From positions 11,949-75,948 of the forward strand of contig CAYHFN010000012.1 of the NCBI GenBank assembly GCA_964355925.1: a stretch of DNA of 64,000 nucleotides, read 5' to 3'. Positions 32,945 through 52,687 of this stretch are shown piece after piece (position 1 is the stretch's first letter; every line of letters begins with the position of its first letter). The stretch comes from an uncultured Chitinophagaceae bacterium. GTDB lineage: Bacteria; Bacteroidota; Ignavibacteria; UBA10030; UBA8401. The notes under the pieces are model-generated. The model saw nothing but the letters and a program-made list of their open reading frames with translations, made no database searches and was not told where the DNA came from. Both the position numbers and the translations under genes were made by a program.

Positions 32945-32954
32945 CCAAAAAATT

Positions 32955-33830
32955 ATGAAAAAAGTACATCTGGTCTTTTTACTCTTTTTGCTGCTGACTG
33001 TAACAGCTGAGTCTGCTGCACCGAAAGGGCATCTCTTTATTATTGGTGGAGGTAAGCGGTCGCCTGAGATGATGAAACAGTTCGTTGAGTTAGCAGGGGG
33101 ACCGGAAAAAGCCCGGATTGTTGTGTTCCCTATGGCAAGCGGTATCGCTGATACGGTTGGTATTGAACAAACAGCATCATTTCGCGAACTCGGCGCAAAG
33201 AATTCAGAATTTATGATTCTTCGCCATGATCAGGCTGACTCCATCGAATATGTGAATCGTTTGACCGGTGTGACTGGTATTTTCTTTTCAGGAGGAGATC
33301 AATCCCGTTTAACGAAAGCACTTGCCGGAACGGCAGTGCTTCGAAAAATTAAGGAATTGTATACAGCCGGTGCAGTCATTGGTGGAACAAGTGCAGGTGC
33401 AGCAGTGATGAGTGCGATGATGATCACCGGAAAGGAATTGCTGCATCGTGATACGGTGAATGCATACACAGCGATCAAAGCACATAATATAGAAACTGTC
33501 GAAGGTTTTGGATTTATCAGCAATGCAATCGTCGATCAGCATTTCATTAAACGAAAACGCCACAACCGTTTGCTAAGTCTCGTTTTGGAACATCCGCAAC
33601 TTATTGGAATTGGAATTGACGAAGCAACTGCGATTATTGTAAATCCAGACGAAACGTTCACTGTTATCGGAGACGCAACGGTATTGGTTGTTGACGCTAC
33701 GAGATCGACGCAGGTCCGAACAAATACTAAAGGAGATCTCAGTGCCGGAAATATGTCATTGCACTTGTTGATGGCAGGAGACAGCTTTAATTTGAAGAGC
33801 CGAAAAATAATTCCGCGAAAGGTGAAATGA
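32955..33830 (+). CDS. cyanophycinase (peptidase S51, CphB/CphE-type) with Sec signal peptide
   Basis: The start at MKKVHLVFLLFLLLTVTAESA gives a signal peptide. Motifs are LFIIGGG, GIFFSGGDQSRL, the nucleophile motif GGTSAGAAVMS, and VDQHFIKRKRHNRL (DQHF-x2-R-x-R-x2-R). Confidence 0.8.
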   Translation: MKKVHLVFLLFLLLTVTAESAAPKGHLFIIGGGKRSPEMMKQFVELAGGPEKARIVVFPMASGIADTVGIEQTASFRELGAKNSEFMILRHDQADSIEYVNRLTGVTGIFFSGGDQSRLTKALAGTAVLRKIKELYTAGAVIGGTSAGAAVMSAMMITGKELLHRDTVNAYTAIKAHNIETVEGFGFISNAIVDQHFIKRKRHNRLLSLVLEHPQLIGIGIDEATAIIVNPDETFTVIGDATVLVVDATRSTQVRTNTKGDLSAGNMSLHLLMAGDSFNLKSRKIIPRKVK

Positions 33831-35218: not shown

Positions 35219-35269
35219 TACCGAAGAGTGATCACTATATTTGAATTTCACCGTAAGGAAAGGGTCTGT

Positions 35270-37816: not shown

Positions 37817-37857
37817 AATATTTGGAAGAGCCTTCTTTATAAAGGAGAAAGAGATTT

Positions 37858-39819
37858 ATGAAATACAAACATATAATTTTTATCACGATGATGTTTGGTT
37901 GTGCAACGATACTGCCGGCGCAGCTGCGCATCGATGCCCGGGAACAAAGGGTTGGTCAACCATTAGTCCAACCTGCGCTACCGATTGACCGCGCACAGAA
38001 CGTCATCAACATCAATCAGTTAGGTCAAGTAGTGACGAACATGGGGCAGTGGCATCCGTATACCGGAACATTTCCACGAGGCAGATGGCCGATTAATACA
38101 AGCCATGATCAATTATACAAGATGACTTTTGCTGTTGGCATACCGTATAGCGGAATTAACGGTGCCAATGTTGCAAATGCCCGCGGGAATGGAACAAAGG
38201 AATGGGATCCTGTGAGCGGAAATAATAATCCAGCCGTCGGTAAGATCGCTTTAAGCACGGATAAGACCACATGGCCGATCGGAACGAATGGCCAGCCGTA
38301 TTGGCCCGTTCGAACCTTTGATGGAAAAGATAGCATCGTGTCGCAGCAGGATTCCTACTGTGTCTATCGTGATAATACCAATGCACAACCGGTCAAATTG
38401 AACATTCAGGTTACGCAGACAAGTTATGCGTGGAGCACATCTAAAGATCAGGATTATATTGTCTGGAAATTGGAAATATTTAACGATACGACTGCCGCGA
38501 AAGATAGTCTGTATTTTGGATTGTATTATGATTTCGATGGTGGTGGAATCTCGAATGAATTTGATGACGATTACTATGTGTGGGATCCAATCCATCAGTT
38601 CACCTATGTTATTGATGCACCGGGGAACACTGGTTGGGAGATCGGCTCCGTACCATTTGCGTTGGGATTGCATTTTTTAGAAACACCAAAAGTGAATGCG
38701 AGCGGACACCTCGATCCGAATGGAACACGAATGGGAATAACGGACTGGCATTGGTCGGGTGTCTATAGTTCTGCCTGGGGGGATAACGTAGCTGACGATA
38801 CAATTTTCTATGGTTGGATGAGCAGCAGTGAGAGACTTAGAGTAAATACTTCACGGCCGACATTGTTTCATGGCTCTGATCGCCGGATTGATAATTGGAG
38901 GCTTCAAGATACTATTACAGGTAATCAAGCAGGTGGCGATGGTGTTGATGGTGTTGTGGCAAGCGGTCCATATCATATGGAGTCGGGTGAGAAAATGACA
39001 TTCATCTTTGCGCAAATAGCCGGACCCGGTGCGGGTCCCGGAACTCCTGATGTGTCTCGACTTTATAAAACTGTAGAGCGGGTCGATTCTGTGTATGCAC
39101 ATAATTTATCCCTCATCCCCCCTCCAAAACCAACGGTGAAGTTTACAGCATTGGACAGCAAAATAAAGTTGACATGGAGTAACGATAAAGAATTGGCATA
39201 TATAGTTCCGGCGACCGGGAAGTCGGCTGTGTTGGAATATCGTGTTTATAAAACAACCGATCCAAGTCGAAATATATGGGGCTCACCGTATGCTGTCATT
39301 CGAAGAGATACTACAAAAACGACCGTTGATCCGATCGCATACCAATGGCAGGATTCGGCAACGACCACGAACTATTTCTATTATTCCTATGCTGTCACAT
39401 CATTTGATCTTGACAGCATTGAATCCGGGAAAGCATTTCTGCCGGCAGATTCAACCAAATTTGAAAATGTCGTTGAAGCAAGGCCAGTGAATTCGCCAAG
39501 AACATCACTCAATGATATTAAGGTTGTTCCTAATCCCTATGTCATCTCCGCTACGTGGGAACGAAAACGATTGGGAGATCCAAAACTGGGTGAACCGATC
39601 AGGGATCTTGCGTTTACAAATCTTCCGGCACAATGCACGATCAGTATTTATACGCTCGATGGAAATTTGGTAAAGACGATAGAACATTCCAATGGAGTAG
39701 GTACGGAGTTTTGGGACTTACGCACATTTTCAAATCAACTCGTCGCAACCGGAATTTATTTCTATCATGTGAAATCATCGATTGGGGAAAGAGTCAGCAA
39801 ATTTGCAGTTGTTCGATAA
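37858..39819 (+). CDS. secreted protein of unknown function with T9SS-CTD/FlgD-Ig-like C-terminus
   Basis: The signal sequence is MKYKHIIFITMMFGCATILPAQ. I recognised no family for the roughly 550-aa body. The C-terminus is VVPNPYVI...CTISIYTLDGNLVKTIEH...FWDLR......TGIYFYHVKS. Confidence 0.5.
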   Translation: MKYKHIIFITMMFGCATILPAQLRIDAREQRVGQPLVQPALPIDRAQNVININQLGQVVTNMGQWHPYTGTFPRGRWPINTSHDQLYKMTFAVGIPYSGINGANVANARGNGTKEWDPVSGNNNPAVGKIALSTDKTTWPIGTNGQPYWPVRTFDGKDSIVSQQDSYCVYRDNTNAQPVKLNIQVTQTSYAWSTSKDQDYIVWKLEIFNDTTAAKDSLYFGLYYDFDGGGISNEFDDDYYVWDPIHQFTYVIDAPGNTGWEIGSVPFALGLHFLETPKVNASGHLDPNGTRMGITDWHWSGVYSSAWGDNVADDTIFYGWMSSSERLRVNTSRPTLFHGSDRRIDNWRLQDTITGNQAGGDGVDGVVASGPYHMESGEKMTFIFAQIAGPGAGPGTPDVSRLYKTVERVDSVYAHNLSLIPPPKPTVKFTALDSKIKLTWSNDKELAYIVPATGKSAVLEYRVYKTTDPSRNIWGSPYAVIRRDTTKTTVDPIAYQWQDSATTTNYFYYSYAVTSFDLDSIESGKAFLPADSTKFENVVEARPVNSPRTSLNDIKVVPNPYVISATWERKRLGDPKLGEPIRDLAFTNLPAQCTISIYTLDGNLVKTIEHSNGVGTEFWDLRTFSNQLVATGIYFYHVKSSIGERVSKFAVVR

Positions 39820-39838
39820 GAACGAAAAGGGAAATATT

Positions 39839-40855
39839 ATGAAGACACTACTGAAGAGATCTATCACAGTGACGGCGCTGTTTGCATGCATCTGCGCAGT
39901 CTCCTTTGCACAAGGATTCAGCAATGTTGGATTCGCTGGTGCCAATTTCTTGAAAATACCCGCTGAACCGGTTGGTGCAGCGCTTGGAAATTCCATTGTT
40001 GCCTCTGCCACCGGTATCCAGGGATTGTTCTGGAATCCGGGTGCTATTGCAAGCACAGAAGGTACGGAGATTCTCTTTTCCCGGATGAATTGGATCAGTG
40101 ATACTCGTATTTCATATCTCGGGGTTGCACAACGTCTTGGTCCCGGCACAATCGGTCTCAGTATGACAGCACTGACGATGGATGAGATGGAGATCACAAC
40201 AGAAACACAGCCGAACGGGACCGGAACATATTTCAATGCCGGCAGTTATGCAGCCGGACTCTCGTATGGATTGAAGATTATCGACCGGTTTAGTTTTGGT
40301 GCAACAGTAAAATATATCTACGAATATATCTGGGATACACACGGCTCCACGTATGCATTCGATCTAGGTTCTATCTACGTCACGAATTTTTATAATATGA
40401 GGATTGGAATGAGGCTGGCGAATTTCGGTGGTGATGTCACATTCACCGGAGCGCCGATCGATAAAAAACCGGCAACAATCGCACAGTCAGGAATTTCCTA
40501 TTCGTACGATCCTCGTCTTGAACGTGTCTCCAAGGAATATCCGCTGCCGCAGTTCTTCAACGCCGGTATCTCCATCGATCCTCTGACGATGGAAGGACAT
40601 AAATTGACATTAACGGTCGCTGTCACCGATCCGAATGACAACAATACACAAATGCAATTCGGTGGAGAATATGTCTTGCAGGATATGTTCATATTGCGCG
40701 CTGGATACAAATCAGGTTATGATGAACAAGATCTTAGTATGGGGCTCGGCGTTAATGTGAATGTGAGTGGAATTACCACCGGCATCGATTTTGGGTACAG
40801 TACGTTTGGTCAACTAGGCAGCGTGAGCGCGCTCAGTCTGCGGATAGGGTTGTAG
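39839..40855 (+). CDS. PorV/PorQ-family (FadL-like) outer-membrane beta-barrel protein
   Basis: I chose the start at MKTLLKRSITVTALFACICAVSFAQ. GFAGANFLKIPAEPVGAALGNS.VA.A.G..GLFWNPGAIA is the characteristic PorV/PorQ N-terminal segment. The barrel pattern continues to the end of the protein. Confidence 0.65.
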   Translation: MKTLLKRSITVTALFACICAVSFAQGFSNVGFAGANFLKIPAEPVGAALGNSIVASATGIQGLFWNPGAIASTEGTEILFSRMNWISDTRISYLGVAQRLGPGTIGLSMTALTMDEMEITTETQPNGTGTYFNAGSYAAGLSYGLKIIDRFSFGATVKYIYEYIWDTHGSTYAFDLGSIYVTNFYNMRIGMRLANFGGDVTFTGAPIDKKPATIAQSGISYSYDPRLERVSKEYPLPQFFNAGISIDPLTMEGHKLTLTVAVTDPNDNNTQMQFGGEYVLQDMFILRAGYKSGYDEQDLSMGLGVNVNVSGITTGIDFGYSTFGQLGSVSALSLRIGL

Positions 40856-40945
40856 TGTTCATTCAACCGATTTTTGTAAAATAGTTTTTATCAATTAATC
40901 ATTGCAGTATTCATTATTTAATCCATTCACTTAAGGGAGGGTACA

Positions 40946-42844
40946 ATGAAATCTCGTTCACTTTTTTGGTTCACCGTACTATGCAGTATGGTTCTTATAC
41001 TAACTACGGGAGTCTTTGCACAAAATATTACAGGGACAAAGATAATCGGTACAGGAGGTGATTATGCAACACTGGCAGCAGCCATTACTGCTTTGAACAC
41101 CAACCATGCTTCCGGTGCAGTAACGTTTCTGATCAATGGTGATTTGACCGAAACTGGCGGTCTCGAGATCACCGATACCGCACTGGTCGGCGGAAACAGT
41201 CTCGTCATTAAACCGAATACGGGGAAGACACCTGCGGTGACCTTCACGACGGTTGCCACTTCCGGAAACAAAGGAAACGCAGGCTTCACGATTACCGGTA
41301 ATTCTATAAGTATGGGAAGTGTCGGTAATGTTACGATCGACGGTTCGAACACTGCAAACGGAACAACTCAGGATATGACATTTGCGATGGGTGATACAAC
41401 GAATGGACGCTACGTTATCCGATTGAGCGGAAATACCGATAATGTTATGATTAAGAATCTCAAAATTCCGGGAACAGGTGTGAAGTCAGCCCTAGCATCC
41501 GGATCCAGAACGTATGGTATCAACTGTTTGGCAATGGCTTCCGGTGCGGCAGACAATTTGACGATTTCCAATTGTGTGATAGGATCGAGTGCTGCTGCGT
41601 GCTATTATGGTTTGTATAAACCGGACGGTGGCACGGTTCCGGCAGGTAAAGGATTAGTAATATCCAAGAATACGATATTTGCACAACATAAGGGTATGAA
41701 TATCTGGTATGCTGAAGGTACAACCAACATTAATAACAATACAATTTCCATTATCGGTTCTCAGAAAGGATATGTTCAAAATTCTGTAAATGCGATCTAT
41801 ATTGAAGCGTGGTCAGGAATATGTAATATATTCAATAACAACCTTATCACTTTGAAGGCTAGTGCCTTTGGTCAAACGGCCCTTAGACCGCTCTATGGAA
41901 TTCTTCTCTATAATCCCTCTGGCGAAGCACCTGCTGGTCAAACTGCAAACGTGTATAATAATTTTATCAGCGATTTCTATTATATTGGGGATGCGACCAC
42001 GTATCCATCTGAAATCAATGGGATAGCAATTGATGCCTATGGACAAACCGTGAATGTTTTTTTTAATACTATCTATATGAATAAAACAAATATAACATCC
42101 AACCCGGTCTATGGCATTCGCATCTATGATGATTCCCTTCAAACAGCAAATCTGAAAAACAATATTATTGTCAACACTGTAGATTTTGATAGTGCCTATG
42201 CAATTTATCGTGGTACGAATGCAACAAACAGTACGTTTACCTCGGATTATAATGACCTTGTTGTTACCGGTGCAAATGCAAATATTGGGAATCATAACGG
42301 CGTGAAGAGTAAAACACTTGCAAATTGGCAGACAGCATCGGGTAAGGATGCCAACAGTAAAAGTGTCAATCCTGCAAATCCGTTTGGAGGAGCAGGTCAA
42401 TTAAAAAGCGTTACAGATTTGCATTGGGTCTCTGCTGCATCCAATGTTTTTGCCGGTACGCCGATCGTTGGTTATACAACGGATATCGATGGTGATACCC
42501 GAAATGCGACAAAACCATATATGGGTGCTGATGAAGCCGGAACAATGACGATCGTTGGCCAAGGACAATCAGTGTCACCATTTGAATATTCGCTTGGACA
42601 AAATTATCCTAATCCGTTTAATCCATCAACGGAGATTTCTTTCCAACTCAAAACAAATGCATTTACTTCCGTGCGCGTGTATGATGCTCTTGGACGGGAA
42701 GTCTCAACAATGGTGAATGAATATCTGTTGGCGGGTTCACACACTGTGAAGTTCTCTGCTCATAATCATGCAAGCGGAGTGTATCTGTATCGTTTGATCT
42801 CCGGATCGTTCAGCGAAACCAAACGAATGATTCTAGTAAAATAA
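40946..42844 (+). CDS. secreted right-handed beta-helix (pectin-lyase-fold-like) protein with T9SS C-terminal domain
   Basis: It has a signal peptide and repetitive N/G/T/I-rich turns (NVTIDGSN, VMIKNLKI, LTISNCVI, NNNTISI, NIFNNNLI, NVYNNFIS, LKNNIIV). The C-terminus is QNYPNPFNPSTEISF...VYDALGREV...GVYLYRL. Confidence 0.6.
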   Translation: MKSRSLFWFTVLCSMVLILTTGVFAQNITGTKIIGTGGDYATLAAAITALNTNHASGAVTFLINGDLTETGGLEITDTALVGGNSLVIKPNTGKTPAVTFTTVATSGNKGNAGFTITGNSISMGSVGNVTIDGSNTANGTTQDMTFAMGDTTNGRYVIRLSGNTDNVMIKNLKIPGTGVKSALASGSRTYGINCLAMASGAADNLTISNCVIGSSAAACYYGLYKPDGGTVPAGKGLVISKNTIFAQHKGMNIWYAEGTTNINNNTISIIGSQKGYVQNSVNAIYIEAWSGICNIFNNNLITLKASAFGQTALRPLYGILLYNPSGEAPAGQTANVYNNFISDFYYIGDATTYPSEINGIAIDAYGQTVNVFFNTIYMNKTNITSNPVYGIRIYDDSLQTANLKNNIIVNTVDFDSAYAIYRGTNATNSTFTSDYNDLVVTGANANIGNHNGVKSKTLANWQTASGKDANSKSVNPANPFGGAGQLKSVTDLHWVSAASNVFAGTPIVGYTTDIDGDTRNATKPYMGADEAGTMTIVGQGQSVSPFEYSLGQNYPNPFNPSTEISFQLKTNAFTSVRVYDALGREVSTMVNEYLLAGSHTVKFSAHNHASGVYLYRLISGSFSETKRMILVK

Positions 42845-42847
42845 ATT

Positions 42848-43738
42848 GTGGAAAGAACTATGACATCATCGAACATCGGAAAGCAAAGCGATTTTGACCT
42901 GAATAAGTTGATACAGGAAAAGTATCCTTTGCTTTCCGAGCAGCAACGCAAAGTTGCAGATTTTCTTCTTCAAAATTTGCGTGATGTTCCATTCTATTCT
43001 GTTGTTGAACTGGGAAAAAAATGCGGGGCGAGTAAAGCAACTGTTGTTCGCCTCGCGCAGGAACTGGGGCTTTCAGGATTTCAGGAATTACGGTCAAAAC
43101 TGCTGGAAGGAGTTCAATCCGAGATACGAATGAAAGACAAATTCTCATTGATCCATAAATCGGATCATAAAGAAGCTCTTACTATGGTCGCACAGCAGGA
43201 TGTAAAGAACATCAATCAAACGATCAATCACCTCGATAAAAAGGTTTTCCATGAGGTGTGTGATACGATCTTGAAGGCATCTCATGTTTATACCGTTGGA
43301 TTGGGTATTTCCTATTTGATGTCCCAGATCCTTGCATACTCACTCAATCAGGCGGCGGTCCGTTCGACACCGCTTGTGCATGACTACAAAACCTTTGTTG
43401 AGCAGATAAAATTTCTGACAACGAAAGATGTACTGATCGCATTATCGTTTCCGCCGTATTCCAAGGAGACCATCGATGCGGTAAAATATGCATCGCAGAA
43501 AAAGATACCGGTCATTGCCATTACCGATAAATTGACGTCACCAATCACTTTTTATTCGTACAAGGTAATTCCGGTGCGAAGTCAGAATTTGAACTTTACA
43601 AACTCATTTTCAGCGATCTCGGTGATCATCAATGCAATTGCCACCGAGCTTTCAATGTGCAACGAAAAAAAGGCTTTGCAGAATCTCGAAGAGATCAATT
43701 CAAAACTTGAAGAAACAGGGCATTATAATGTTGAATGA
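42848..43738 (+). CDS. MurR/RpiR-family transcriptional regulator (HTH_6 + SIS domain)
   Basis: LSEQQRKVADFLLQN......SV.ELGKKCGASKATVVRLAQELG.SGF.ELR is the HTH region, followed by a SIS domain. The start could instead be the internal Met at 42860. Confidence 0.8.
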   Translation: MERTMTSSNIGKQSDFDLNKLIQEKYPLLSEQQRKVADFLLQNLRDVPFYSVVELGKKCGASKATVVRLAQELGLSGFQELRSKLLEGVQSEIRMKDKFSLIHKSDHKEALTMVAQQDVKNINQTINHLDKKVFHEVCDTILKASHVYTVGLGISYLMSQILAYSLNQAAVRSTPLVHDYKTFVEQIKFLTTKDVLIALSFPPYSKETIDAVKYASQKKIPVIAITDKLTSPITFYSYKVIPVRSQNLNFTNSFSAISVIINAIATELSMCNEKKALQNLEEINSKLEETGHYNVE

Positions 43739-43781
43739 ATTCAGGTTCTTTAACTACACATTGCATTGAGGATAATATTAA

Positions 43782-45806
43782 ATGAAGAACAATGTGCTCT
43801 CTCGATGGATTAAAGTATTGTTTTCAATCATACTTCCGATTGTGAGTGCAGCGCAAGGTTCAGTATTGCTTGTAGGTGGAGGGAGTGAAAATTACAACGA
43901 TTGGTCCGACGTACCGTACCGGTGGATGGTCGACCACGTGCCGAACAAAAAAATTCTTGTGATGCATTACTCCAGCGGGTCGACTTGGTTGGAAGGATAT
44001 TTTAAATCGCTCGGTGCAGTTTCAGCTACAAGTTTTGTCGTTGCTTCTACCTCAGCCGCAAATGACTCCGCTGCTTATAAAACAATTCTTGCAGCAGACG
44101 GAATATTTCTGCGCGGAGGCGATCAATATCAGTATATCAGCAGATGGAAAGGGACGCTGACCGAAAAAGCGATTCGAGAAGTATATCAACGCGGCGGGGT
44201 GATCGGCGGATCGAGTGCTGGTGAAGCGGTACTAAGCCAGGTTATTTTTGATGCTCGTGTTGCTTCCACTGATCCTCGTAACGCACTCCGGAATCCTCTT
44301 TCATCAGGAATCACATTTACAGAAGATTTTCTTGGTTTTGCTTCCGGTATACTTGCAGACACTCATTTTTATGAACGGGGAAGACTGGGTCGATTGCTTG
44401 CAATGATTGCTGTCTATAAATCGCAGACCGGAAAAGAGATCACCGGAGTCGGCGTTGACTATAACACAGCGTTGGCAATTTCGTCTGATGGTGTTGGAGA
44501 AGTGATGGGTTCGGGAACGGTTACGATTCTCCGTTTCTCACCAGCCACGCAATATGTTTTGGAGCCAGGTAAACCATTATCAATGTCAAATGTTCGGCTT
44601 GATCAATTGACGAAAGGATTCAAGTTCAACATATTGACCGGAAATATTTTAGTTCCGGCAACGGCAGTGTCATTCCAACCCAAAAGTGTAAATACATCAG
44701 CACAATCTATAATGCTTGATGGAAGCGGTCGAATCGCAGATTGGTTCTCTGTCTCCGGAAGTTTGAAAAAATTGGTGGCCCTGGTTCCAAATTCAACGGA
44801 CACTATTGGTATTTTCGCTTCGCCCGTTTCGGCATCGATCGCCTCGAGCATTGACTCATGTTTGAAACACTGGAATGTACCATCTCGATTTTTGTGGATC
44901 GATGAAGCTCGAAAGAATGATCCCGCGCTGTCGGTTAATATTGAAGGTTGCGCAGCATTTGTCTTAGCCGGTAATAATGGCGACAGTATTTCGCGATTGC
45001 TCAATGCTTCAACAACGGCAGGAATTTCTCTTTTCTCAAAATTTTCAAACGGCAAACCCGCGCTCTTCCTCGGCAATGATGGGATTGTAGCGTCGGAAAA
45101 CGGAGTGGGACAGATTGAAAAGAATATTTACGGCGCATATTATGGATACATGACACTCATTCAAGGAATTGGAACTCTCCAGGGAATTTCTGTCATCCCC
45201 CGATTATATGAAAATTCCGATTACATCGACAATAGGGCGAGCGGACTTTTTTGGGGATTGGGAAAATCACACAATACTTTTGGTATTTTACTTGATGCCG
45301 GTTCATATGTTTCTGTGACAAATAAAAACATGCAGGTGTTTGGTCCAACACCGGCAATGATCATCGATGCCCGAGCAGTGCGTATCGTGGATTTTCCAAC
45401 ATGGAAAGATCCGGGCAAAGCAAATCCGCGACAGAATGTGGCGCTGATCGGAGCGATGATCCATGTGCTGCGCGAGACGGAGGTGTTTGATCTAAGCTAT
45501 CTATCGGAAGTGAGGATCGATAAAATGAAAAACGATATTCCGAATGAATTCTCGTTATCACAAAATTATCCTAATCCATTTAACCCGACGACGAATTTTA
45601 TGTTTTCACTGCCTCAGCGCGGCGTTGTCACGGTAAGAATATTCGATATTCTTGGAAAAGAGATATTGACTCTGCTGAACCAGGAAAAAGCAGCGGGAAA
45701 GTATCGAATGACATTTGATGGGTCGCAGTTTGCGTCCGGAGTCTATCTTTATCGATTGCAGACCGGAAGTACCATCAACACAAAGAGGATGGTGTTGTTG
45801 AAATGA
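43782..45806 (+). CDS. T9SS-sorted cyanophycinase-like S51 peptidase with a second, degenerate S51-like domain
   Basis: It has a signal peptide. Domain 1 has LLVGGGS, GIFLRGGDQYQY, GGSSAGEAVLS and DTHFYERGRLGRL (R-x-R-x2-R kept). Domain 2 has the parallel segments IMLDGSG, AFVLAGNNGDSI, LFLGNDGIVAS (no Ser-Ala-Gly nucleophile) and IPRLYENSDYIDNR. The C-terminus is QNYPNPFNPTTNFMF...IFDILGKEI...GVYLYRL. Confidence 0.7.
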   Translation: MKNNVLSRWIKVLFSIILPIVSAAQGSVLLVGGGSENYNDWSDVPYRWMVDHVPNKKILVMHYSSGSTWLEGYFKSLGAVSATSFVVASTSAANDSAAYKTILAADGIFLRGGDQYQYISRWKGTLTEKAIREVYQRGGVIGGSSAGEAVLSQVIFDARVASTDPRNALRNPLSSGITFTEDFLGFASGILADTHFYERGRLGRLLAMIAVYKSQTGKEITGVGVDYNTALAISSDGVGEVMGSGTVTILRFSPATQYVLEPGKPLSMSNVRLDQLTKGFKFNILTGNILVPATAVSFQPKSVNTSAQSIMLDGSGRIADWFSVSGSLKKLVALVPNSTDTIGIFASPVSASIASSIDSCLKHWNVPSRFLWIDEARKNDPALSVNIEGCAAFVLAGNNGDSISRLLNASTTAGISLFSKFSNGKPALFLGNDGIVASENGVGQIEKNIYGAYYGYMTLIQGIGTLQGISVIPRLYENSDYIDNRASGLFWGLGKSHNTFGILLDAGSYVSVTNKNMQVFGPTPAMIIDARAVRIVDFPTWKDPGKANPRQNVALIGAMIHVLRETEVFDLSYLSEVRIDKMKNDIPNEFSLSQNYPNPFNPTTNFMFSLPQRGVVTVRIFDILGKEILTLLNQEKAAGKYRMTFDGSQFASGVYLYRLQTGSTINTKRMVLLK

Positions 45807-45841: not shown

Positions 45842-45875
45842 AATGATCCAAAGAAACTTTTTGGATCATTTTTTT
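45842..45875 (+). terminator. rho-independent terminator closing the S51/T9SS gene set
   Basis: aatgatccaaa-gaaactt-tttggatcatt forms an 11-bp stem, followed by a T-run. Confidence 0.6.
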
Positions 45876-45883
45876 GAGATATC

Positions 45884-45896
45884 ATTCTCAGAGAAT
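45884..45896. promoter_or_regulatory. palindromic candidate operator upstream of the carbamoyltransferase operon
   Basis: attctc-a-gagaat is a perfect 6-bp-arm palindrome about 60 nt upstream of the GTG start at 45954. The regulator is unknown. Confidence 0.2.
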
Positions 45897-45953
45897 TGTC
45901 ACTATATTTTAATAACTAATTATTCCACCTTCTTATAAAAAAGGAACCGCACC

Positions 45954-46871
45954 GTGAAATCCCATGATTTTTTGACTATTCGTGATCTCAATAAAGAAGA
46001 AATGCACGAAACATTTACAATCGCACGAGACATGAAAACTGATCGCAGCAAATACGCAGAAGCATTGAAAGGTAAAACGCTTGCTCTCATTTTCGAAAAG
46101 CCGTCGTTAAGAACCCGCACCTCGTTCGATGTTGGAATCCAGCAATTAGGTGGATTCTCACTCTACTTATCTCCTGCCGAAATCAGTCTTGGCAAACGGG
46201 AATCCATCCACGATGTAGCAAAAAATCTGGAACGGATGGTACAGGGTATCATGATCAGGACGTTCGCACATCAGATCGTGATCGATATGGCAAAATATGC
46301 CTCCATTCCTGTCATCAATGGATTGACCGATTATTCACATCCATGTCAAGCAATGGCAGATTTTCTAACGATCCTTGAAAAGAAAAAGAAACTTGAAGGA
46401 TTAAAACTTTCGTATGTAGGTGATGGCAATAATGTTGCTCACTCATTGATGTTTGCCGGTGCTCGACTCGGTGTGAATGTAACGATTGTCTGTCCTCCGG
46501 ATTTCAAACCAAATGCCACAGCATTGCAACAATCGGTGGAAGATGCAAAAGCAACCGGTGCAGTGATCGAAGTGGTGCATGATCCGGCTATAGGAGTGAA
46601 AAATGCTGATGTGGTGTACACCGATACGTGGGCATCGATGGGACAGGAAAGTGAAGCTGAAGCACGGAAAAAAATATTTGCACCGTATCAGGTGAACAAG
46701 AAACTGATGTCCTATGCAAAAACCGATGTACTCTTTATGCATTGTCTGCCTGCGCATCGTAATGAAGAAGTGACCGATGAAGTCATTGATTCACCTCAGT
46801 CTGTTGTCTTCGATGAAGCGGAAAACCGACTTCATGTGCAAAAAGCAATCATGTATCAGTTAATGAAATAA
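45954..46871 (+). CDS. argF: ornithine carbamoyltransferase
   Basis: GTG start after aaggaa. Motifs are FEKPSLRTRTSF, HPCQ, DGNNV, DTWASMG and HCLPA. Whether it acts catabolically (arcB) or anabolically (argF) cannot be told from the sequence. Confidence 0.9.
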   Translation: MKSHDFLTIRDLNKEEMHETFTIARDMKTDRSKYAEALKGKTLALIFEKPSLRTRTSFDVGIQQLGGFSLYLSPAEISLGKRESIHDVAKNLERMVQGIMIRTFAHQIVIDMAKYASIPVINGLTDYSHPCQAMADFLTILEKKKKLEGLKLSYVGDGNNVAHSLMFAGARLGVNVTIVCPPDFKPNATALQQSVEDAKATGAVIEVVHDPAIGVKNADVVYTDTWASMGQESEAEARKKIFAPYQVNKKLMSYAKTDVLFMHCLPAHRNEEVTDEVIDSPQSVVFDEAENRLHVQKAIMYQLMK

Positions 46872-46876
46872 TCAGT

Positions 46877-47818
46877 ATGAAAAAAACAGCGTTGATTGCA
46901 ATTGGCGGAAATTCACTGATCCGTGCCGGAGAGCGCGGCACAATTGATGAGCAGTTGAAAAATGCCCATGCGACGGCACGATGCATTGTTCAGATGGTGG
47001 CTCAAGGATGGCGCATTGTCATTACGCATGGCAACGGGCCACAGGTAGGTGCTGCGTTGATGAGATCTGAGCGAGCTGCCAGCGATGTGTACACACATCC
47101 GCTTGATGTCTGTGTCGCAACCACACAAAGTGAGATCGGGTACATCATTCAACGGGCGATGGAATTTGAATTGCGGGAGATTGGGTTGTTGACGCCGGTG
47201 ATGACTGTGTTGACTCAAGTAAAAGTTGATGAGAACGACCCTGCATTTACGAATCCAACAAAACCGATCGGTCCGTTCTATTCAAAGTCGGATGCGGAAG
47301 AAAAACAACGAACGCTCGGCTGGCACATTATTGAAGACGCTGCGCGTGGATATCGGCGCGTTGTTCCATCTCCCGAACCGGTCGAAGTGTTCGAACAGGA
47401 GATTATACGGAAGATCCTCGATCTGAATATGATCGTTATCGCTGTCGGCGGCGGCGGAATACCCGTTATCGAGCGCGAAAAATATCTTGTGATCGGCAGT
47501 GAAGCGGTGATCGATAAGGATCGTGCATCTGCTCTTCTTGCAACCGGATTGGGTGTTGACCTTTTTATTATCAGTACCGATGCTGAGAAAGTGTGTATCG
47601 ATTTTAAGAAACCAACACAATATGGAATAGATACCGCTACCGCAGATGAAATGCAGAAGCTCTATGATCAGGGACAGTTTCCAGCAGGAAGTATGGGACC
47701 CAAGGTTCAATCTGCTATCCGGTATCTGCGAAACGGCGGGAAAAAAGTTATCATTACATCGTACGAATTTTTAATGGATGCGTTGGACGGTAAAGCAGGA
47801 ACGCGTATTGTTCTATAA
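46877..47818 (+). CDS. arcC: carbamate kinase
   Basis: 313 aa. Motifs are ALIAIGGNSL, ITHGNGPQVG, GGGGIPV, AVIDKD and P.GSMGPKV. Confidence 0.9.
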   Translation: MKKTALIAIGGNSLIRAGERGTIDEQLKNAHATARCIVQMVAQGWRIVITHGNGPQVGAALMRSERAASDVYTHPLDVCVATTQSEIGYIIQRAMEFELREIGLLTPVMTVLTQVKVDENDPAFTNPTKPIGPFYSKSDAEEKQRTLGWHIIEDAARGYRRVVPSPEPVEVFEQEIIRKILDLNMIVIAVGGGGIPVIEREKYLVIGSEAVIDKDRASALLATGLGVDLFIISTDAEKVCIDFKKPTQYGIDTATADEMQKLYDQGQFPAGSMGPKVQSAIRYLRNGGKKVIITSYEFLMDALDGKAGTRIVL

Positions 47819-47839
47819 TATTATTGGAGTGAGCAAACC

Positions 47840-48757
47840 ATGAAACTACAGCATATCATAGAATCGCAGCAATTCACCGTTCCATTGTTATTGGAACTGT
47901 TCGAACGAACACGACAGATGGAAAAAATAGTAGCCCGCGGCGGAACTCGCGATTATGAAAATAAGATCATGGCGACACTATTCTACAAATCGTCGACACG
48001 AACTAGATTTTCATTTGAATCAGCGATGTACCGGCTTGGAGGAAAGGTATTATCTACGGAAAATGGACATGATTTTTCTTCGGAAATAAAAGGGGAATCG
48101 CTTGAAGACACCATCCGTATTATTGCAAATTATTCTGATGTGATTGTATTGCGACATACGGAAGAAGGAGCAGCAAAACGCGCTTCACTTGTTTCACCTG
48201 TTCCGGTCATCAACGCCGGTGATGGGAATGGAGGCCAGCATCCGACACAAGCGCTGCTCGATCTCTATACTATTTATAATGAATGTAAAACAGCAAATGG
48301 TCTATCGGTAGCGTTTATTGGTGCACTTGATAACGGACGGACGGTTCGTTCGCTGACCTATCTTCTCAGTAAATTTGATCGTATCAAATTCTATTTCATC
48401 GCTCCTAGAGAAATGCAAGTGAAACCTGATATTCTTGCATACCTTGATAAATATAAAGTAAGCTATGAACTAGCTTCTGATCCTGCAAAAATCATTTCAC
48501 AGGTTGATGTTGTTTATCAGACAAGGATCGATCGAGAGCGTCTGCAACGGAGCGATATCGATCTTTCTGTTTATAACATAGATAAGAGTGTCCTTCAAAG
48601 AATGAAATCAAATGCAATCATTATGCACCCCCTGCCGAGGTCAGTCGAGATCGATCAAGAGATTGATGCTGATCCGCGTGCAGTCTATTTTCGACAAGCG
48701 CGCAACGGCTTGTTTGTTCGCATGGCGCTTCTGACAATTTTATTTGATAAGGAATGA
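47840..48757 (+). CDS. pyrB: aspartate carbamoyltransferase catalytic chain-like
   Basis: Motifs are STRTRFSFE, LRH, NAGDG..QHPTQALLD, GRTV.S and HPLPR..EI. No pyrI or pyrC is adjacent. Confidence 0.75.
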   Translation: MKLQHIIESQQFTVPLLLELFERTRQMEKIVARGGTRDYENKIMATLFYKSSTRTRFSFESAMYRLGGKVLSTENGHDFSSEIKGESLEDTIRIIANYSDVIVLRHTEEGAAKRASLVSPVPVINAGDGNGGQHPTQALLDLYTIYNECKTANGLSVAFIGALDNGRTVRSLTYLLSKFDRIKFYFIAPREMQVKPDILAYLDKYKVSYELASDPAKIISQVDVVYQTRIDRERLQRSDIDLSVYNIDKSVLQRMKSNAIIMHPLPRSVEIDQEIDADPRAVYFRQARNGLFVRMALLTILFDKE

Positions 48758-48865
48758 TGCGATGGCTCTCCTTGTATATTATTTGAACATGATGTAATAA
48801 CTGGATTCCTGTTGTATCGAATCATAGAGAACATTACACTATTCATTTTATAAAAGGATTGAACC

Positions 48866-50062
48866 ATGAAAACGCAAGAATATATCGCGCTTGAAGAACA
48901 ATATGGCGCTCATAATTATCACCCGCTCGATGTTGTCATCCAAAAAGCACAAGGAGTGTGGGTTACCGATGTTGAAGGAAATAAATTTCTTGATTGTCTT
49001 GCGGCGTATTCCGCCGTCAATCAGGGACACTGCCATCCTGCCATCCGGAAAGCATTTATCGAACAGGCAGACAAAGTAACTCTCACCAGCCGCGCATTCC
49101 GCAACGACCAGCTTCCATTGCTGTATAAAGCACTTCACGATATGACGGGATTCGAAATGTCGCTGCCGATGAATTCCGGTGCCGAAGCGGTTGAGACCGC
49201 CGTGAAAGCAGCCCGTAAATGGGGATACAAAGTAAAAGGGATTCCTGATGGGAAAGCGGAGATCATCTGTGCCACAGATAATTTTCATGGACGCACAACG
49301 ACGATTGTGAGCTTCTCAACCGATGCTCAGTATCGTGACGGATTTGGTCCATTTACTCCCGGATTTCCGATCGTAAAATATGGGGACATTAGTGCGCTGA
49401 AAGCAGCGATCAATAAAAATACCGCGGCATTTCTTGTTGAACCAATCCAGGGTGAAGCAGGAATCGTTGTTCCTCCGGAAGGATATCTAAAAGAAGCCGC
49501 ACGGTTATGCAAAGAGAATAATGTGCTGATGATCTGCGATGAAATACAGTCAGGACTTGGGCGCAGCGGAAAAATGTTCGCTTTTGAATACGACGGCATC
49601 CGTCCCGATATGGTCATCATCGGTAAGGCATTGAGCGGTGGATTCTATCCTGTCTCTGCGGTTCTTTCGTCGAAAGAAGTGCTCGGCGTTTTTCATCCGG
49701 GCGATCACGGTTCTACGTTCGGTGGCAATCCTCTTGCGGCAGCAGTAGCATGCGCTGCGTTGAAAGTATTGAAAGATGAAAATCTCATCGAACGCTCGTT
49801 CGAACTTGGTAATTATTTTATGGGAAAACTGAGGGCGATCAAAAGCAAGCATATCGCAGAAGTTCGCGGTCGCGGTTTATGGATTGGTTTTGTGCTCGAT
49901 ACGAAAGCTCGTCCGTACTGCGAACGGTTGATGAAAGAAGGCATCCTTTGCAAAGAGACCCATGAAAATGTCATCCGTTTTGCCCCTCCTCTTGTGATCA
50001 CGAAAGAAGAGATCGATTGGGCATGTGAGCGAATTGAACGGGTAGTGCTTTCACTCGACTGA
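48866..50062 (+). CDS. rocD: ornithine--oxo-acid aminotransferase (class III PLP)
   Basis: YGAHNYHPL, AYSAVNQGHCHP, DEIQSGLGRSGK and GDHGSTFGGNPLA show the ornithine aminotransferase pattern. Confidence 0.8.
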   Translation: MKTQEYIALEEQYGAHNYHPLDVVIQKAQGVWVTDVEGNKFLDCLAAYSAVNQGHCHPAIRKAFIEQADKVTLTSRAFRNDQLPLLYKALHDMTGFEMSLPMNSGAEAVETAVKAARKWGYKVKGIPDGKAEIICATDNFHGRTTTIVSFSTDAQYRDGFGPFTPGFPIVKYGDISALKAAINKNTAAFLVEPIQGEAGIVVPPEGYLKEAARLCKENNVLMICDEIQSGLGRSGKMFAFEYDGIRPDMVIIGKALSGGFYPVSAVLSSKEVLGVFHPGDHGSTFGGNPLAAAVACAALKVLKDENLIERSFELGNYFMGKLRAIKSKHIAEVRGRGLWIGFVLDTKARPYCERLMKEGILCKETHENVIRFAPPLVITKEEIDWACERIERVVLSLD

Positions 50063-50124
50063 CTTTTTGTTTCACAATATAAACACAACGAAATCAATTA
50101 AACTCAAATTTAAAGGAATACAAT

Positions 50125-51459
50125 ATGTCAAATAATAAACCAATCGTCACGCTGATTGTAGGAGCGGCCGGCAGAGACTTTCACAATTTTAATATGATCT
50201 ATCGCGATAACCCGATGTATAATGTTGTTGCTTTTACCGCTGCACAAATTCCGGATATTGCAGGACGAAAATATCCGGCCGCATTGGCGGGTTCATTATA
50301 TCCGAAAGGGATAGCAATTTTCGAAGAAAAGAATCTTGAAGCATTGATCGAAAAATTCTCTGTTGATGAAGTTGTTTTTTCTTACAGTGATGTAACATAC
50401 AAACATGTCATGAGTATCGGTTCGCGGGCGACGGCGGCAGGTGCACATTTCAAAATTTTAAGTGCGGGCGGAACGATGATCAAAAGCAAGAAACCGGTGA
50501 TCTCGGTCTGCGCCGTTCGTACCGGAAGCGGTAAGAGTCAAACGACGCGGAAAGTTTCTGCGCTCTTGCAAGCAATGGGATATAAGGTGGTTGCAGTCCG
50601 TCATCCGATGCCGTATGGTGATCTAGAAAAACAAAAGGTACAACGATTCGCCACCGTTGCAGATCTGAAAAAACACAATTGCACCATTGAAGAAATGGAA
50701 GAATACGAACCGCATATTTCAAGTGGTACTATCATTTATTCCGGCGTAGACTATGCCGCAATCCTTGCGCAAGCGGAAAAAGAAGCCGATGTCGTATTAT
50801 GGGATGGCGGTAATAACGATCTTCCGTTCTTCACTCCGGATTTGCACATTGTGGTTGCCGACCCGCTCCGCGCAGGTAACGAGTTAACGTACTACCCGAG
50901 CGAAGCGAATCTTCGATTGGCAGATGTTGTCATCATTAACAAGATCGATTCGGCGACACCTGAATCAGTCACTCTACTCAGAGAAAACATTCGTTCGGTC
51001 AACGCTCGCGCTCGGATTGTTGACGCAGCATCGCCGATCGGTATTGAACATGGAGAGAAAATTACCGGAAAACGAGTTCTCGTCATCGAAGATGGTCCGA
51101 CATTAACGCATGGCGAAATGAAATTCGGAGCTGGTACAGTAGCTGCTCAGAAATTTGGTGCATCAGAATTAGTCGATCCGCGTCCGTATGCAACCGGTGA
51201 AATCAAGAAGACGTACGAAACATATCCGAAAATAGGAATACTTCTGCCGGCGATGGGATACAGCGATAAGCAGGTGAAAGATCTCGAAGTTACCATCAAC
51301 AAAGTGCCGTGTGATGCGGTGATAATCGGAACGCCGATCGATCTGAACAGGATCGTCAAGATCAAGAAACCAACATTTCGGGTGACATACGATCTTCAGG
51401 AGATCGGTGAGCCAAGCCTATCCACTATTCTGGATGAGTTTGTTGCGAAGTTGAAATAG
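50125..51459 (+). CDS. P-loop NTPase/GTPase of the cyclic 2,3-diphosphoglycerate synthetase-like family (function unknown)
   Basis: Walker A is AVRTGSGKSQTT. WDGGNND and IINKID (NKxD-like) are also present, after an N-terminal Rossmann-like region. The family name is recalled from similar annotated bacterial proteins and has not been verified. Confidence 0.5.
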   Translation: MSNNKPIVTLIVGAAGRDFHNFNMIYRDNPMYNVVAFTAAQIPDIAGRKYPAALAGSLYPKGIAIFEEKNLEALIEKFSVDEVVFSYSDVTYKHVMSIGSRATAAGAHFKILSAGGTMIKSKKPVISVCAVRTGSGKSQTTRKVSALLQAMGYKVVAVRHPMPYGDLEKQKVQRFATVADLKKHNCTIEEMEEYEPHISSGTIIYSGVDYAAILAQAEKEADVVLWDGGNNDLPFFTPDLHIVVADPLRAGNELTYYPSEANLRLADVVIINKIDSATPESVTLLRENIRSVNARARIVDAASPIGIEHGEKITGKRVLVIEDGPTLTHGEMKFGAGTVAAQKFGASELVDPRPYATGEIKKTYETYPKIGILLPAMGYSDKQVKDLEVTINKVPCDAVIIGTPIDLNRIVKIKKPTFRVTYDLQEIGEPSLSTILDEFVAKLK

Positions 51460-51479
51460 AAAAAATATTTTCTTATGCA

Positions 51480-51513
51480 GAAAGCCGCGTGAATTGAAAT
51501 TCATGCGGCTTTC
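51480..51513. terminator. long hairpin terminator between convergent genes
   Basis: gaaagccgcgtgaat-tgaa-attcatgcggctttc forms a 15-bp stem with one G-U pair. The flanks are T-rich and A-rich. Confidence 0.55.
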
Positions 51514-51517
51514 TTAT

Positions 51518-52687
51518 TCATCTCATGTTCTTAAAACCATTCTCGATCTCGAATGAAAGACGCTCGAATACTTCCTGAAACGTACCGACGCCGTTAATTT
51601 TCGTCACACCATGCAGTTGATTGTACTTTAAAATTACCGGGACAGTTTTTACTTCGTGTTCTTTTAGCCGTTTTACGATCTTCGAAGTACTATCATCGTA
51701 CGGCATGCACCGTTCTGTTTTGCTTCGCTCATCAAGTCGGTAGATCAGATCAAGTGCCGGAACTTCAATCTCAATAATTTTTGAAATTGAAGAACCGTGT
51801 TTTCGCAGCAAACCGTCGAGAATATATGATTGAACGAGCGTTCGGGGAAATCCCTTGAAAATATAGCCCTTCACATTTTTTGATGTTGCAAGTTTCTTTT
51901 CGATCAACTGAACGACAATTTCATCCGGAACAAGATTGCCATTCTCATACATCGAAATGATCTTCTGGCCGAGAGGTGTATGTTGTTTTATTTCGCGCTC
52001 AAGCATTTCTCCTGTTGCAACATATTCAAGACCGAAACGTTCTGCAAGTGCTTTTCCCTGCGACCCGCGTCCCGACCCTGGATAACCAAACAATACGATA
52101 TTCAATAATTTATTTTGTAGCTCTTTTGAAATGATATTCGCAATTTCATCTCTGACGTGTTCGATTGATGCGGAGCTGTCTACATCGTGACAAATACCTT
52201 TCTCTTTGTAAAACTGAAGCACGGGCAATGTTTTTTCGTTGTATTCTTTCAGTCTGTTTCTGATCACCGTTTCATTATCATCAGTTCTCCCGGAAGTTTT
52301 TCCTCTGTTTAAAAGACGGGCAACAGATTCTTCTTCGGAAACATTCAGACTGATCAGACAAGTGAGAGATGTATTCAACTTTAACATTAATCCTTCAAGA
52401 ATATATGCCTGGATGTATGTTCGAGGAAATCCGTCAAATAAAAATCCATTTGCTTCCGGATTTTCTGTGATTGTTTTTTCGATGATCTGAACGATGATCT
52501 CGTCTGAAACAAGACCGCCCGCCGATATGATGATTTGGGCTTCCAGTCCCAAAATTGTTTTAGCTGCTATTTCTTTGCGCAGCAGATCTCCGGTTGATAT
52601 ATAAAATAGATTATATTTTTTTATGAGGAACTCCGATTGGGTTCCTTTACCTGCGCCCGGTGGACCGAAAAGTGCAATATTAAGCAT
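51518..52687 (-). CDS. adk: tandem (fused) adenylate kinase: a canonical N-terminal domain plus a degenerate C-terminal domain
   Basis: 389 aa, equal to two short-lid Adk units. Domain 1 has GPPGAGKGTQ, GDLLR, GFPRT and GRTDDN..V..RL. Domain 2 (about 51518-52105) has GYPGSGRGSQ, GEMLE, GFPRT and YDDSTSKIVKRL. Confidence 0.8.
   Translation of the reverse strand: MLNIALFGPPGAGKGTQSEFLIKKYNLFYISTGDLLRKEIAAKTILGLEAQIIISAGGLVSDEIIVQIIEKTITENPEANGFLFDGFPRTYIQAYILEGLMLKLNTSLTCLISLNVSEEESVARLLNRGKTSGRTDDNETVIRNRLKEYNEKTLPVLQFYKEKGICHDVDSSASIEHVRDEIANIISKELQNKLLNIVLFGYPGSGRGSQGKALAERFGLEYVATGEMLEREIKQHTPLGQKIISMYENGNLVPDEIVVQLIEKKLATSKNVKGYIFKGFPRTLVQSYILDGLLRKHGSSISKIIEIEVPALDLIYRLDERSKTERCMPYDDSTSKIVKRLKEHEVKTVPVILKYNQLHGVTKINGVGTFQEVFERLSFEIENGFKNMR

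Follow-up and report, generated by a model that had tools for sequence, protein, structure and literature searches.

In Thermococcus kodakarensis, arginine is broken down by a pathway made of the arginine synthetase ArcE (TK2200), ArcB (TK0871) and ArcC (TK2158) (PMC11032458; Michimori et al. 2026, PMC13260591). ArcE catalyzes the reaction Arg + ADP + Pi <-> Cit + NH3 + ATP (Michimori, Yokooji and Atomi 2024, PMC11032458). Its homologues were reported to be widespread in bacteria, those of Bacteroidota, Acidobacteria and Caldithrix being listed as arcE; they are annotated as putative GTPases, are weakly similar to cyclic 2,3-diphosphoglycerate (cDPG) synthase, have arcB or arcC nearby in some genomes and are complementary in their occurrence to ArcA among ArcC-bearing genomes, and the AlphaFold model of TK2200p resembles LpxK (4EHY) (PMC11032458). 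The subject of the present analysis is a five-gene operon found in a stretch of 64,000 nucleotides (nt) from an uncultured bacterium of the Ignavibacteria type, hereafter called the window (contig CAYHFN010000012.1, assembly GCA_964355925.1), which is compared here with this pathway and with the arginine deiminase pathway encoded by arcABC(D).

The five co-directional genes, which occupy window positions 45954-51459, encode in this order an ornithine transcarbamylase (OTC), a carbamate kinase (CK), a PyrB-like protein derived from aspartate carbamoyltransferase (ATCase) and here called TCx, an ornithine delta-aminotransferase (OAT) and a P-loop protein of 444 amino acids (aa), and the gaps between them measure 5, 21, 108 and 62 nt (Table 1). 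The operon is probably a bacterial ArcE pathway for arginine catabolism, extended by the OAT and TCx, whose enzymatic steps we infer. As in the T. kodakarensis pathway, a P-loop protein of ArcE type is found with an OTC and a CK and without an arginine deiminase; its gene is grouped with arcB and arcC, its model is of the cDPG synthetase (cDPGS) and LpxK kind, and the expected yield is likewise two NTP per arginine. Unlike in T. kodakarensis, the host is a bacterium, the genes form one operon while TK2200, TK0871 and TK2158 are non-consecutive, a rocD-type OAT and a CK-linked TCx are added, and the host also has carbamoyl-phosphate synthetase, argG and argH. The window protein further differs by its NKID motif, possibly with a different nucleotide preference, the comparison with TK2200 being made by descriptors. 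With the arcABC(D) deiminase pathway the operon has in common the OTC and CK steps, the clustering of the genes and a catabolic, ATP-yielding logic; it differs in that the genome has no ArcA (PF02274), that the first step is proposed to be energy-conserving and that the operon contains no arcD-type antiporter, a YfcC-like carrier being encoded in the upstream locus. In short, the core of ArcE-type enzyme, OTC and CK matches the published pathway, and its arrangement in a single bacterial operon, the OAT and the CK-TCx pair set it apart.

Table 1. Position in the window of the operon genes, their control elements and the upstream locus
Feature	Position	Strand	Evidence or description
Cyanophycin-type scavenging locus (context)	31829-45806	+	M20 peptidase, cyanophycinase, YfcC-like carrier, TonB receptor, T9SS surface proteins, RpiR regulator, secreted cyanophycinase-like protein
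True cyanophycinase	32928-33830	+	TIGR02069 191.9 bits, over cut-off
YfcC-family "putative basic amino acid antiporter"	33827-35218	+	376.6 bits, below cut-off; between cyanophycinase and TonB receptor
Upstream intrinsic terminator (T9SS cyanophycinase-like gene)	45842-45877	+	13-bp stem 45842-45870, then T run
Candidate operator palindrome ATTCTC-A-GAGAAT	45884-45896	+	Overlaps sigma-70-like site
Candidate promoter TTGTCA-16-AATTAT, sigma-70-like	45896-45923	+	Promoter scan, consensus match
arcB-type OTC	45954-46871	+	NF001986 436.9 bits (cut-off 306), TIGR00658 411.1 bits (cut-off 280.85)
arcC carbamate kinase (CK)	46877-47818	+	TIGR00746 376.6 bits, cut-off 358.25
TCx, ATCase-derived CK-linked protein	47840-48757	+	TIGR00670 292.7 bits, over cut-off
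rocD-type ornithine delta-aminotransferase (OAT)	48866-50062	+	TIGR01885 556.6 bits (cut-off 378.4), NF003145 628.9 bits
ArcE-type arginine synthetase candidate, 444-aa P-loop protein	50125-51459	+	Fold, context, co-occurrence
3' hairpin	51479-51514	.	16-bp stem, -24.9 kcal/mol, z -7.4

The assignment of the fifth gene, which is single-copy in the genome, relies on fold, context and distribution. The 444-aa protein matches no NCBIfam family and gives a weak cobW match in Pfam, and its database homologues of 77-96% identity, from Ignavibacteria-type metagenomes, are labelled 'GTPase' or 'cyclic 2,3-diphosphoglycerate synthase'. With phmmer, the protein matched cDPGS weakly (9sxb, E 0.009). The AlphaFold2 model (pLDDT 78.9, pTM 0.80) was matched by Foldseek, over its full length, with cDPG synthetase (8oru, E 2.8e-19, and 8ork, E 1e-17), and the next match was LpxK (4ehy, E 9e-10). 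A scan for homologues limited to one genome per species returned at least 581 loci, of which the best 80 were taken for their neighbourhoods. Homologues with 63-76% identity occur in Acidobacteriota, Bacteroidota, Marinimicrobia, KSB1, Nitrospinota, Chloroflexota, Zixibacteria, Desulfobacterota, Spirochaetota, candidate phyla and Thermoplasmatota archaea. A CK gene lies at most 400 nt from the ArcE-like gene in 23 of the best 80 loci and anywhere in the locus in 29, common orders among them being ArcE-CK-OTC and ArcE-CK-ndk-sucC-sucD.

Co-occurrence was measured across 301 sampled genomes of the phylum, 57 of which have the 444-aa protein and 48 of which have CK. The protein was found in 45/48 CK-bearing genomes vs 12/253 of those without CK (odds ratio 301, p 1e-38). 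Among the three CK-bearing exceptions, one has a gene of the arginine deiminase (ADI) family and two have the CK-TCx pair (located, in genome G109, in a ygeW/ygeY purine cluster). As a marker of ArcA, PF02274 is too broad across the phylum (100/301 genomes match) and was used within the CK-bearing genomes; among those of the class, the 444-aa protein is complementary to ADI-family genes. Among the genomes listed for the order to which the window belongs, none has a PF02274 gene, and the genome itself, with its CK and OTC, likewise has none. The descriptors published for ArcE are thus found together, namely the P-loop kinase fold with LpxK 4EHY as a neighbour and a low similarity to cDPG synthetase, and a distribution in which the protein stands in for ArcA in CK genomes and often adjoins arcB or arcC. 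Judged by these descriptors, the 444-aa protein very probably belongs to the ArcE family, and arginine synthetase would probably be the right name for what databases label 'GTPase / cDPG synthase'. An earlier reading of the window, made from the letters and their open reading frames (ORFs) and called here the sequence-only reading, had stated that the window lacks a gene for turning arginine into citrulline; this was not confirmed, the fifth gene of the operon being probably that enzyme, of arginine synthetase type. NKxD is a motif of GTPase type, and CK, nucleoside diphosphate kinase and sucCD come next after the gene in several phyla, a motif and a context that would fit a GTP-forming variant.

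The other enzymes are assigned more directly. The identities given to the OTC, the CK and the OAT by the sequence-only reading were confirmed by profile scores over the cut-offs and, for the OTC, by its motifs, DxxxSMG reading DTWASMG and HCLP occurring as HCLPAHR. This OTC is the genome's second, with 49% identity to the argF that lies in the C89 arg operon, and its GTG start is kept in the same-genus genome G233 and in locus L010. CK is single-copy in the genome. The OAT has the same operon position in L016, L017-L019, L011 and L103-L105. Directly 5' of ArcE, an aldehyde dehydrogenase of ~500 aa is encoded in at least five loci (L080, L091 and others), and a homologue with 56% identity is present in the genome studied here (C29:24954-26447). 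This ArcE-adjoining enzyme scores below every NCBIfam cut-off, with best matches of the 2,5-dioxovalerate and glutamate-semialdehyde dehydrogenase types, so that the name pyrroline-5-carboxylate dehydrogenase is not assignable; as judged from its position and profile matches, it is a candidate for oxidizing the product of the aminotransferase.

Under the proposed pathway, the 444-aa enzyme would convert arginine + NDP + Pi to citrulline + NH3 + NTP, the operon OTC would convert citrulline + Pi to ornithine + carbamoyl phosphate (CP), and CK would convert CP + ADP to ATP and carbamate (CO2 + NH3). The OAT would transform ornithine + 2-oxoglutarate into glutamate 5-semialdehyde + glutamate and, by draining ornithine, would pull forward the unfavourable OTC step. 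The net yield would be two NTP per arginine vs one by the deiminase pathway. In this genome, arginine would probably come in part from the cyanophycin-scavenging locus directly upstream.

The rest of the genome (assembly of 3.8 Mb, 99.7% complete) provides the context for this proposal. It contains five genes of the transcarbamylase family, namely the two of the window, a second OTC inside an argC-argJ-argB-argF-argR-argG operon (contig C89), a canonical PyrB within pyrR-pyrB-pyrC (contig C8; NF002032, 405.8 bits) and a YgeW knotted transcarbamylase in a xanthine-dehydrogenase/ygeY cluster (contig C4). In addition, carB is on C21 (1536 bits), argH is on C4 and a rocF-type arginase, unlinked to the operon, is on C5 (TIGR01229, 310.9 bits). 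No gene of the arginine deiminase family (PF02274) was found in this 99.7% complete genome, and the same search detected control genomes. The genome search that the sequence-only reading had proposed as a check therefore retrieved a rocF-type arginase, carB, a second pyrB and a second argF, and no member of the arcA family. The operon is accessory in this genome because argC-J-B-F-R-G, argH, pyrR-pyrB-pyrC and carB are all encoded separately. The sequence-only reading had also foreseen that the PyrB-like gene might be the sole pyrB and this OTC the sole argF, which would have pointed to plain biosynthesis; further genes of both kinds exist, and plain biosynthesis is ruled out by the separate argF, pyrB, carB, argG and argH. 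That the first step likely relies on the fifth gene of the operon follows from the absence of an ADI-family gene in the genome and from the unlinked position of the arginase. The catabolic direction is favoured because argG, argH, carB and a separate argF are present, because the OAT is of rocD type, because the association with CK is tight and because of the local context. The catabolic scheme of the sequence-only reading, from arginine to citrulline, then to ornithine and CP and finally to ATP, thus stands in outline, with ornithine removed by the OAT; it is amended in that its first step, which had no enzyme in the window, is assigned to the operon's own fifth gene, and in that the condensation of CP with aspartate by the PyrB-like protein is dropped, for the reasons that follow.

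TCx was described in the sequence-only reading as a PyrB-type ATCase, and this description is right for the fold and the CP site and wrong for the aspartate site. The adjoining statement, that neither pyrI nor pyrC accompanies the gene, is correct. The closest solved relative is the plant-type ATCase of Arabidopsis (6ypo, 330 bits, ~58% identity). Residues were compared between 129 members of the TCx clade and 138 representatives of canonical ATCase clusters, drawn from a search of 1.8 billion proteins, with a numbering of TCx that coincides with that of E. coli ATCase. The CP-site motifs SSTRTR, VLRH, QHPTQ and HPLPR are present in the window protein. Throughout the clade, S52, T53, T55, R105, H134, R167 and HPLPR are invariant, as they are conserved in canonical enzymes, and R54 and Q137 are kept in 128/129 and 127/129 members. 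Elsewhere the clade departs from the canonical pattern. Position 50 is K/R in 119/129 TCx members, with E50 kept in 3/129, and E in 124/138 canonical enzymes; position 84 is K in 42/129 (E 36, R 21, H 13, Q 9) and in 133/138; position 162 is A in 118/129 and D in 1/129, against D in 137/138; position 229 is R in 77 and H in 51 of the 129, against R in 135/138; and position 231 is D in 119/129 (R or L in the Acidobacteria type), against Q in 130/138. Position 164, variable in canonical enzymes, is D in 126/129 TCx members, and an extra Gly at 131, before QHPTQ, is found in 126/129 and is absent in 132/138 canonical sequences. The window protein keeps K84 and R229 and has K50, A162 and D231, its aspartate-site signature being RIDRER in the context TRIDRER.

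RxQxER is reported to be present in all known ATCases, with R229 and Q231 anchoring the beta-carboxylate of aspartate (PMC4581275). Of the features that define an ATCase, TCx has the CP site (S-T-R-T-R, R105, H-P-x-Q and H-P-L-P) and lacks the RxQxER motif of the 240s loop, the set of domain-closure and aspartate-site residues K84, D162 and E50, and any sign of pyrimidine service, either as sole ATCase or by linkage with pyr genes. Because the defining residues examined (RxQxER, E50, K84, D162) fail, TCx is, on its residues, not a canonical ATCase, its CP site being kept and its aspartate site lost or remodelled. Condensation of CP with aspartate is accordingly not supported for a protein without Q231, D162 and E50, in a clade that varies at K84 and R229. 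K/R50 occurs with D231 in 112/129 members and E50 occurs with R or E at 231, a charge pairing that is suggestive only; a salt-bridge swap between K84/D231 and E84/R231 was discarded, the combinations being mixed.

When compared with Arabidopsis PYRB (6YPO, 6YS6; PMC7878868), TCx has the same length and likewise no regulatory chain, its CP loop reads F-S-S with a Phe equivalent to plant F161 in 128/129 members, and the CP site, R167 and HPLPR are intact. It differs from the plant enzyme by R/H-x-D-x-E-R in place of RxQxER, by A162, K/R50 and a variable K84, by a loop in which AA is replaced by E-I/V and by the extra Gly before QHPTQ, as well as by being always 3' of CK and never the sole ATCase homologue of its genome (11 genomes tested). 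In the same phylum, a canonical plant-like ATCase that is not CK-linked (L097, G002:C270:2906-3811) has the motifs EFSSVAKGETL, GDLAHGRT and RIQKER, and the L097 group includes the nearest bacterial relatives of plant PYRB. As these similarities suggest, TCx probably arose from a duplicated gene of this plant-like ATC II type. A functional parallel is offered by the ureidoglycine transcarbamylase of Rubrobacter xylanophilus, a catabolic enzyme of the ATCase branch that works with CK and has the signature H(T/S)LP, S258 and K261 (PMC4581275). TCx resembles it in belonging to the ATCase branch, in its pyrB annotation and in its association with CK in a catabolic route, and differs by a different 240s loop and by HPLPR in 129/129 members instead of H(T/S)LP, which rules out the same activity. 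Putrescine transcarbamylase is an unlikely identity: aguA is present in the genome, next to a CN-hydrolase gene (aguB-like), so that N-carbamoylputrescine needs no transcarbamylase, and residue 231 is not uniformly acidic across the TCx sub-clades. The cyanophycin dipeptide beta-Asp-Arg was also rejected as a substrate, the operon being found elsewhere without cyanophycinase neighbours, even in the same genus.

What is constant in TCx is its partnership with CK. The gene lies directly 3' of CK in every locus that has it, with a 21-nt spacer in the window and a 4-nt overlap in L011. The 18 CKs linked with TCx form one clade (support 84/83, or 97/96 with one neighbour), apart from 22 ArcE-adjoining CKs without TCx. 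A canonical pyrB (a second TIGR00670 match elsewhere) is present in 11/11 TCx genomes tested. In G109, of the same genus and without ArcE, the pair is inside a ygeW-ygeY-xanthine dehydrogenase purine cluster. The TCx of G109 and that of the sister-genus genome G061 have also lost CP residues (S52, R54): STRTR is replaced by SGLLTR or SGTLTR and R229 by G or S, and one of the two has DPLSR for HPLPR; the N-terminus specific to TCx, ESQQF..P...LFER...RGGT.DY, is kept. These degenerate genes are under purifying selection, because they retain 78% identity with a dN of 0.156 and a saturated dS, and the dN/dS of their kinases is 0.046. As an observation on the cluster itself, the ygeW / PLP enzyme / ygeY / mobA-like / xanthine dehydrogenase genes of G109 (L095, G109:C1:1780000-1794000) and of the genome studied here (C4:62000-78000) are nearly identical, and the CK-TCx pair lies between ygeY and the mobA-like gene in G109 and in the arc operon instead in the present genome.

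Altogether, the adjacency to CK, the single CK clade, the separate pyrB, the pair in the ygeW cluster and the decayed CP site suggest that the trait selected in TCx is the partnership with CK and not a fixed transcarbamylation. In ArcE-linked members, where the CP site is invariant, binding of CP (or of a phosphorylated ligand) would still matter, and a TCx with a fully intact CP site may still be an enzyme. TCx may be a CP-binding, channelling or regulatory partner of CK or, nearly as readily, a transcarbamylase with another second substrate, and a working ATCase is improbable. Tentatively, TCx proteins can be seen as a new class derived from ATCase, obligate partners of one CK lineage, which would provide a ligand-binding subunit (for CP or a nucleotide) that channels or gates CP into CK rather than a transcarbamylase of fixed amine, in a module attachable to ArcE-OTC or to YgeW routes. 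This proposal is drawn from the adjacency and co-inheritance with CK, from a relaxed aspartate site amid strong constraint and from the selected sub-clade without S52 and R54. Precedents exist for both aspects, the channelling complexes between the carbamate kinase-like carbamoyl-phosphate synthetase and transcarbamylases of Pyrococcus illustrating physical coupling, and the pseudo-dihydroorotase of Pseudomonas ATCase illustrating a catalytically dead paralogue kept as a structural partner. Unlike in these cases, CK-TCx is known here as a gene pair, and the CP site is fully intact in most TCx proteins, including that of the window.

Several points weigh against reading the operon as a bacterial ArcE pathway. 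The link between the 444-aa protein and the characterized TK2200 is indirect and relies on descriptors, the protein searches, also when seeded with an Aciduliprofundum homologue, having listed close relatives and no Thermococcus entry, and a literature search found no assayed bacterial ArcE. The NKxD motif reads NKID in 112/120 bacterial proteins (residues 272-275 in the window) and mostly NKEE (75/120) in an archaea-centred set, so that the nucleotide preference, or the substrate, could differ from that of the archaeal enzyme. ArcE is reversible, hence the direction of the pathway is deduced from gene content. The pathway as drawn gives one conserved gene, TCx, no job. Finally, cyanophycin genes accompany the operon in no related locus, including that of the same-genus genome with a 90% identical operon. 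In a rival reading, the 444-aa protein would be another kinase or ligase of the cDPGS/LpxK fold, active on a guanidino, ureido or phosphorylated compound, and citrulline would come from outside or from another enzyme. Apart from the likeness to TK2200 being set by descriptors and the motif unlike that of many archaeal homologues, this idea draws on the many phyla in which the gene is found with CK, ndk and sucCD but without a nearby OTC, and on the 12 sampled genomes that have the protein without CK. It is nevertheless held to be unlikely, since an identity of 63-76% across bacteria and archaea suggests one conserved function, the gene is strongly associated with CK and, within the CK-bearing genomes of the class, complementary to genes of the ADI family, homologues of Bacteroidota, Acidobacteria and Caldithrix are named arcE by the discoverers (PMC11032458), and the closest structural neighbours are the same as those published for TK2200p.

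Other explanations accept the ArcE-type enzyme and change the fate of CP or the direction of the flow. Arginine-derived CP might be routed to pyrimidines if TCx were a working ATCase with an unusual pocket, condensing CP with cyanophycin-derived aspartate to carbamoyl aspartate. In T. kodakarensis, the arginine synthetase pathway does supply CP for pyrimidines (PMC13260591), TCx scores over the TIGR00670 cut-off, it keeps the CP site, R167 and HPLPR with K84 and R229 in the window copy, and the upstream locus would release Asp and Arg. The probability of this routing is nonetheless low in view of D231, A162 and K50, of a clade with K84 in 42/129 and H229 in 51/129 members when RxQxER is reported for all known ATCases (PMC4581275), of the presence of carB and pyrR-pyrB-pyrC in the genome and of a canonical pyrB in 11/11 TCx genomes, of the sub-clade without R54 and S52 that is still under purifying selection, and of the TCx operons elsewhere that have no cyanophycinase neighbours. 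The second proposal of the sequence-only reading was an anabolic hub, in which CK would make CP from ammonia and CO2 for both transcarbamylases; completed with the present assignments, ArcE would make arginine from citrulline, NH3 and ATP and the OAT would supply ornithine from glutamate semialdehyde. Such a hub is very improbable and found no support in a genome that encodes carB, argG, argH and pyrR-pyrB-pyrC and in which the acetylated ornithine route is complete and includes an argF of its own. Moreover, the CK of T. kodakarensis could not replace the CP source (PMC13260591), the ArcE-type enzyme tracks CK in the phylum and not the absence of argG/argH, and both the rocD-type OAT and CK are catabolic markers. 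What speaks for the hub is the reversibility of the aminotransferase and of ArcE, the latter supporting in vivo arginine synthesis from citrulline, with a biosynthetic role suggested by the authors for organisms without argG and argH (PMC11032458). The catabolic ArcE pathway is therefore preferred.

The operon recurs in other genomes. The five-gene order is also found in L016 (Ignavibacteriaceae), L019 (Acidobacteria), L011/L012, G233, G024 and G069, and CK-TCx-OAT-ArcE is read from the start of the locus in L017 and L018 (Acidobacteria). Variants include an operon without the aminotransferase (L010, G153), the order ArcE-OTC-CK-TCx (L031, G189, G197) and a distribution over two contigs, with CK-TCx on one and OTC-OAT-ArcE on the other (G245). 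No description of a bacterial ArcE operon, or of the TCx clade, came up in a literature search.

The boundaries of the operon are well marked. The sequence-only reading had placed the five co-directional genes after a terminator and a palindrome of their own, and both elements are real. At the 5' side, the boundary is the terminator of the preceding gene, whose fold (-13.3 kcal/mol, z -4.4) was equalled in 0/200 shuffles. The block GA.AT.ATTCTCAGAGAAT.GTCA.TATATTTT is common to the window and to G233, and the DNA further upstream differs in G233; the operator and promoter roles assigned to 45884-45923 are putative and derive from consensus matches. In homologous operons (L011, L102, L103, L016, L104), sigma-54-type -24/-12 elements are found 100-150 nt 5' of the OTC start, for example TGGCACGCATCTTGA, TGGCACAGAACTTGA and TGGCATAGAACTTGC, with a long leader after each; in the window and its congener G233, their place is taken by a sigma-70-like site and the ATTCTCAGAGAAT palindrome. 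At the 3' side, the boundary is the hairpin that separates the arcE-like gene from a convergent gene and that has no clean T run on the + strand. This neighbour, at 51518-52687 on the - strand, is one 389-aa ORF made of two tandem adenylate kinase units, matched twice by NCBIfam models (residues 3-188 and ~196-327), and the terminal hairpin is common to it and to the arc operon.

Upstream of the operon lies the cyanophycin-type scavenging locus, a plausible source of arginine for it. The presence there of an arginine-to-ATP operon makes sense because cyanophycin yields Asp-Arg. The cyanophycin link drawn by the sequence-only reading is hence plausible in this genome, with a true cyanophycinase locus directly upstream, and it is not a conserved feature of the related loci. 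The YfcC-like carrier might be a carrier of arginine, ornithine or dipeptide, a function for which the arc operon has no gene.

Arginine synthetase revised the textbook vision of arginine breakdown in 2024 and was tested in one archaeon. The present locus indicates that common uncultured bacteria of sediment and soil (Ignavibacteria, Acidobacteria) carry the ArcE pathway as a fixed five-gene operon, and its position beside a cyanophycin-scavenging locus suggests a way of gaining ATP from a nitrogen-storage polymer that is widespread. Database labels are corrected as well, one 'aspartate carbamoyltransferase' being not an ATCase, and the CK-TCx pair presents a well-defined and testable puzzle in carbamoyl-phosphate metabolism, whose answer could be a transcarbamylase of new specificity or a pseudo-enzyme paired with CK.

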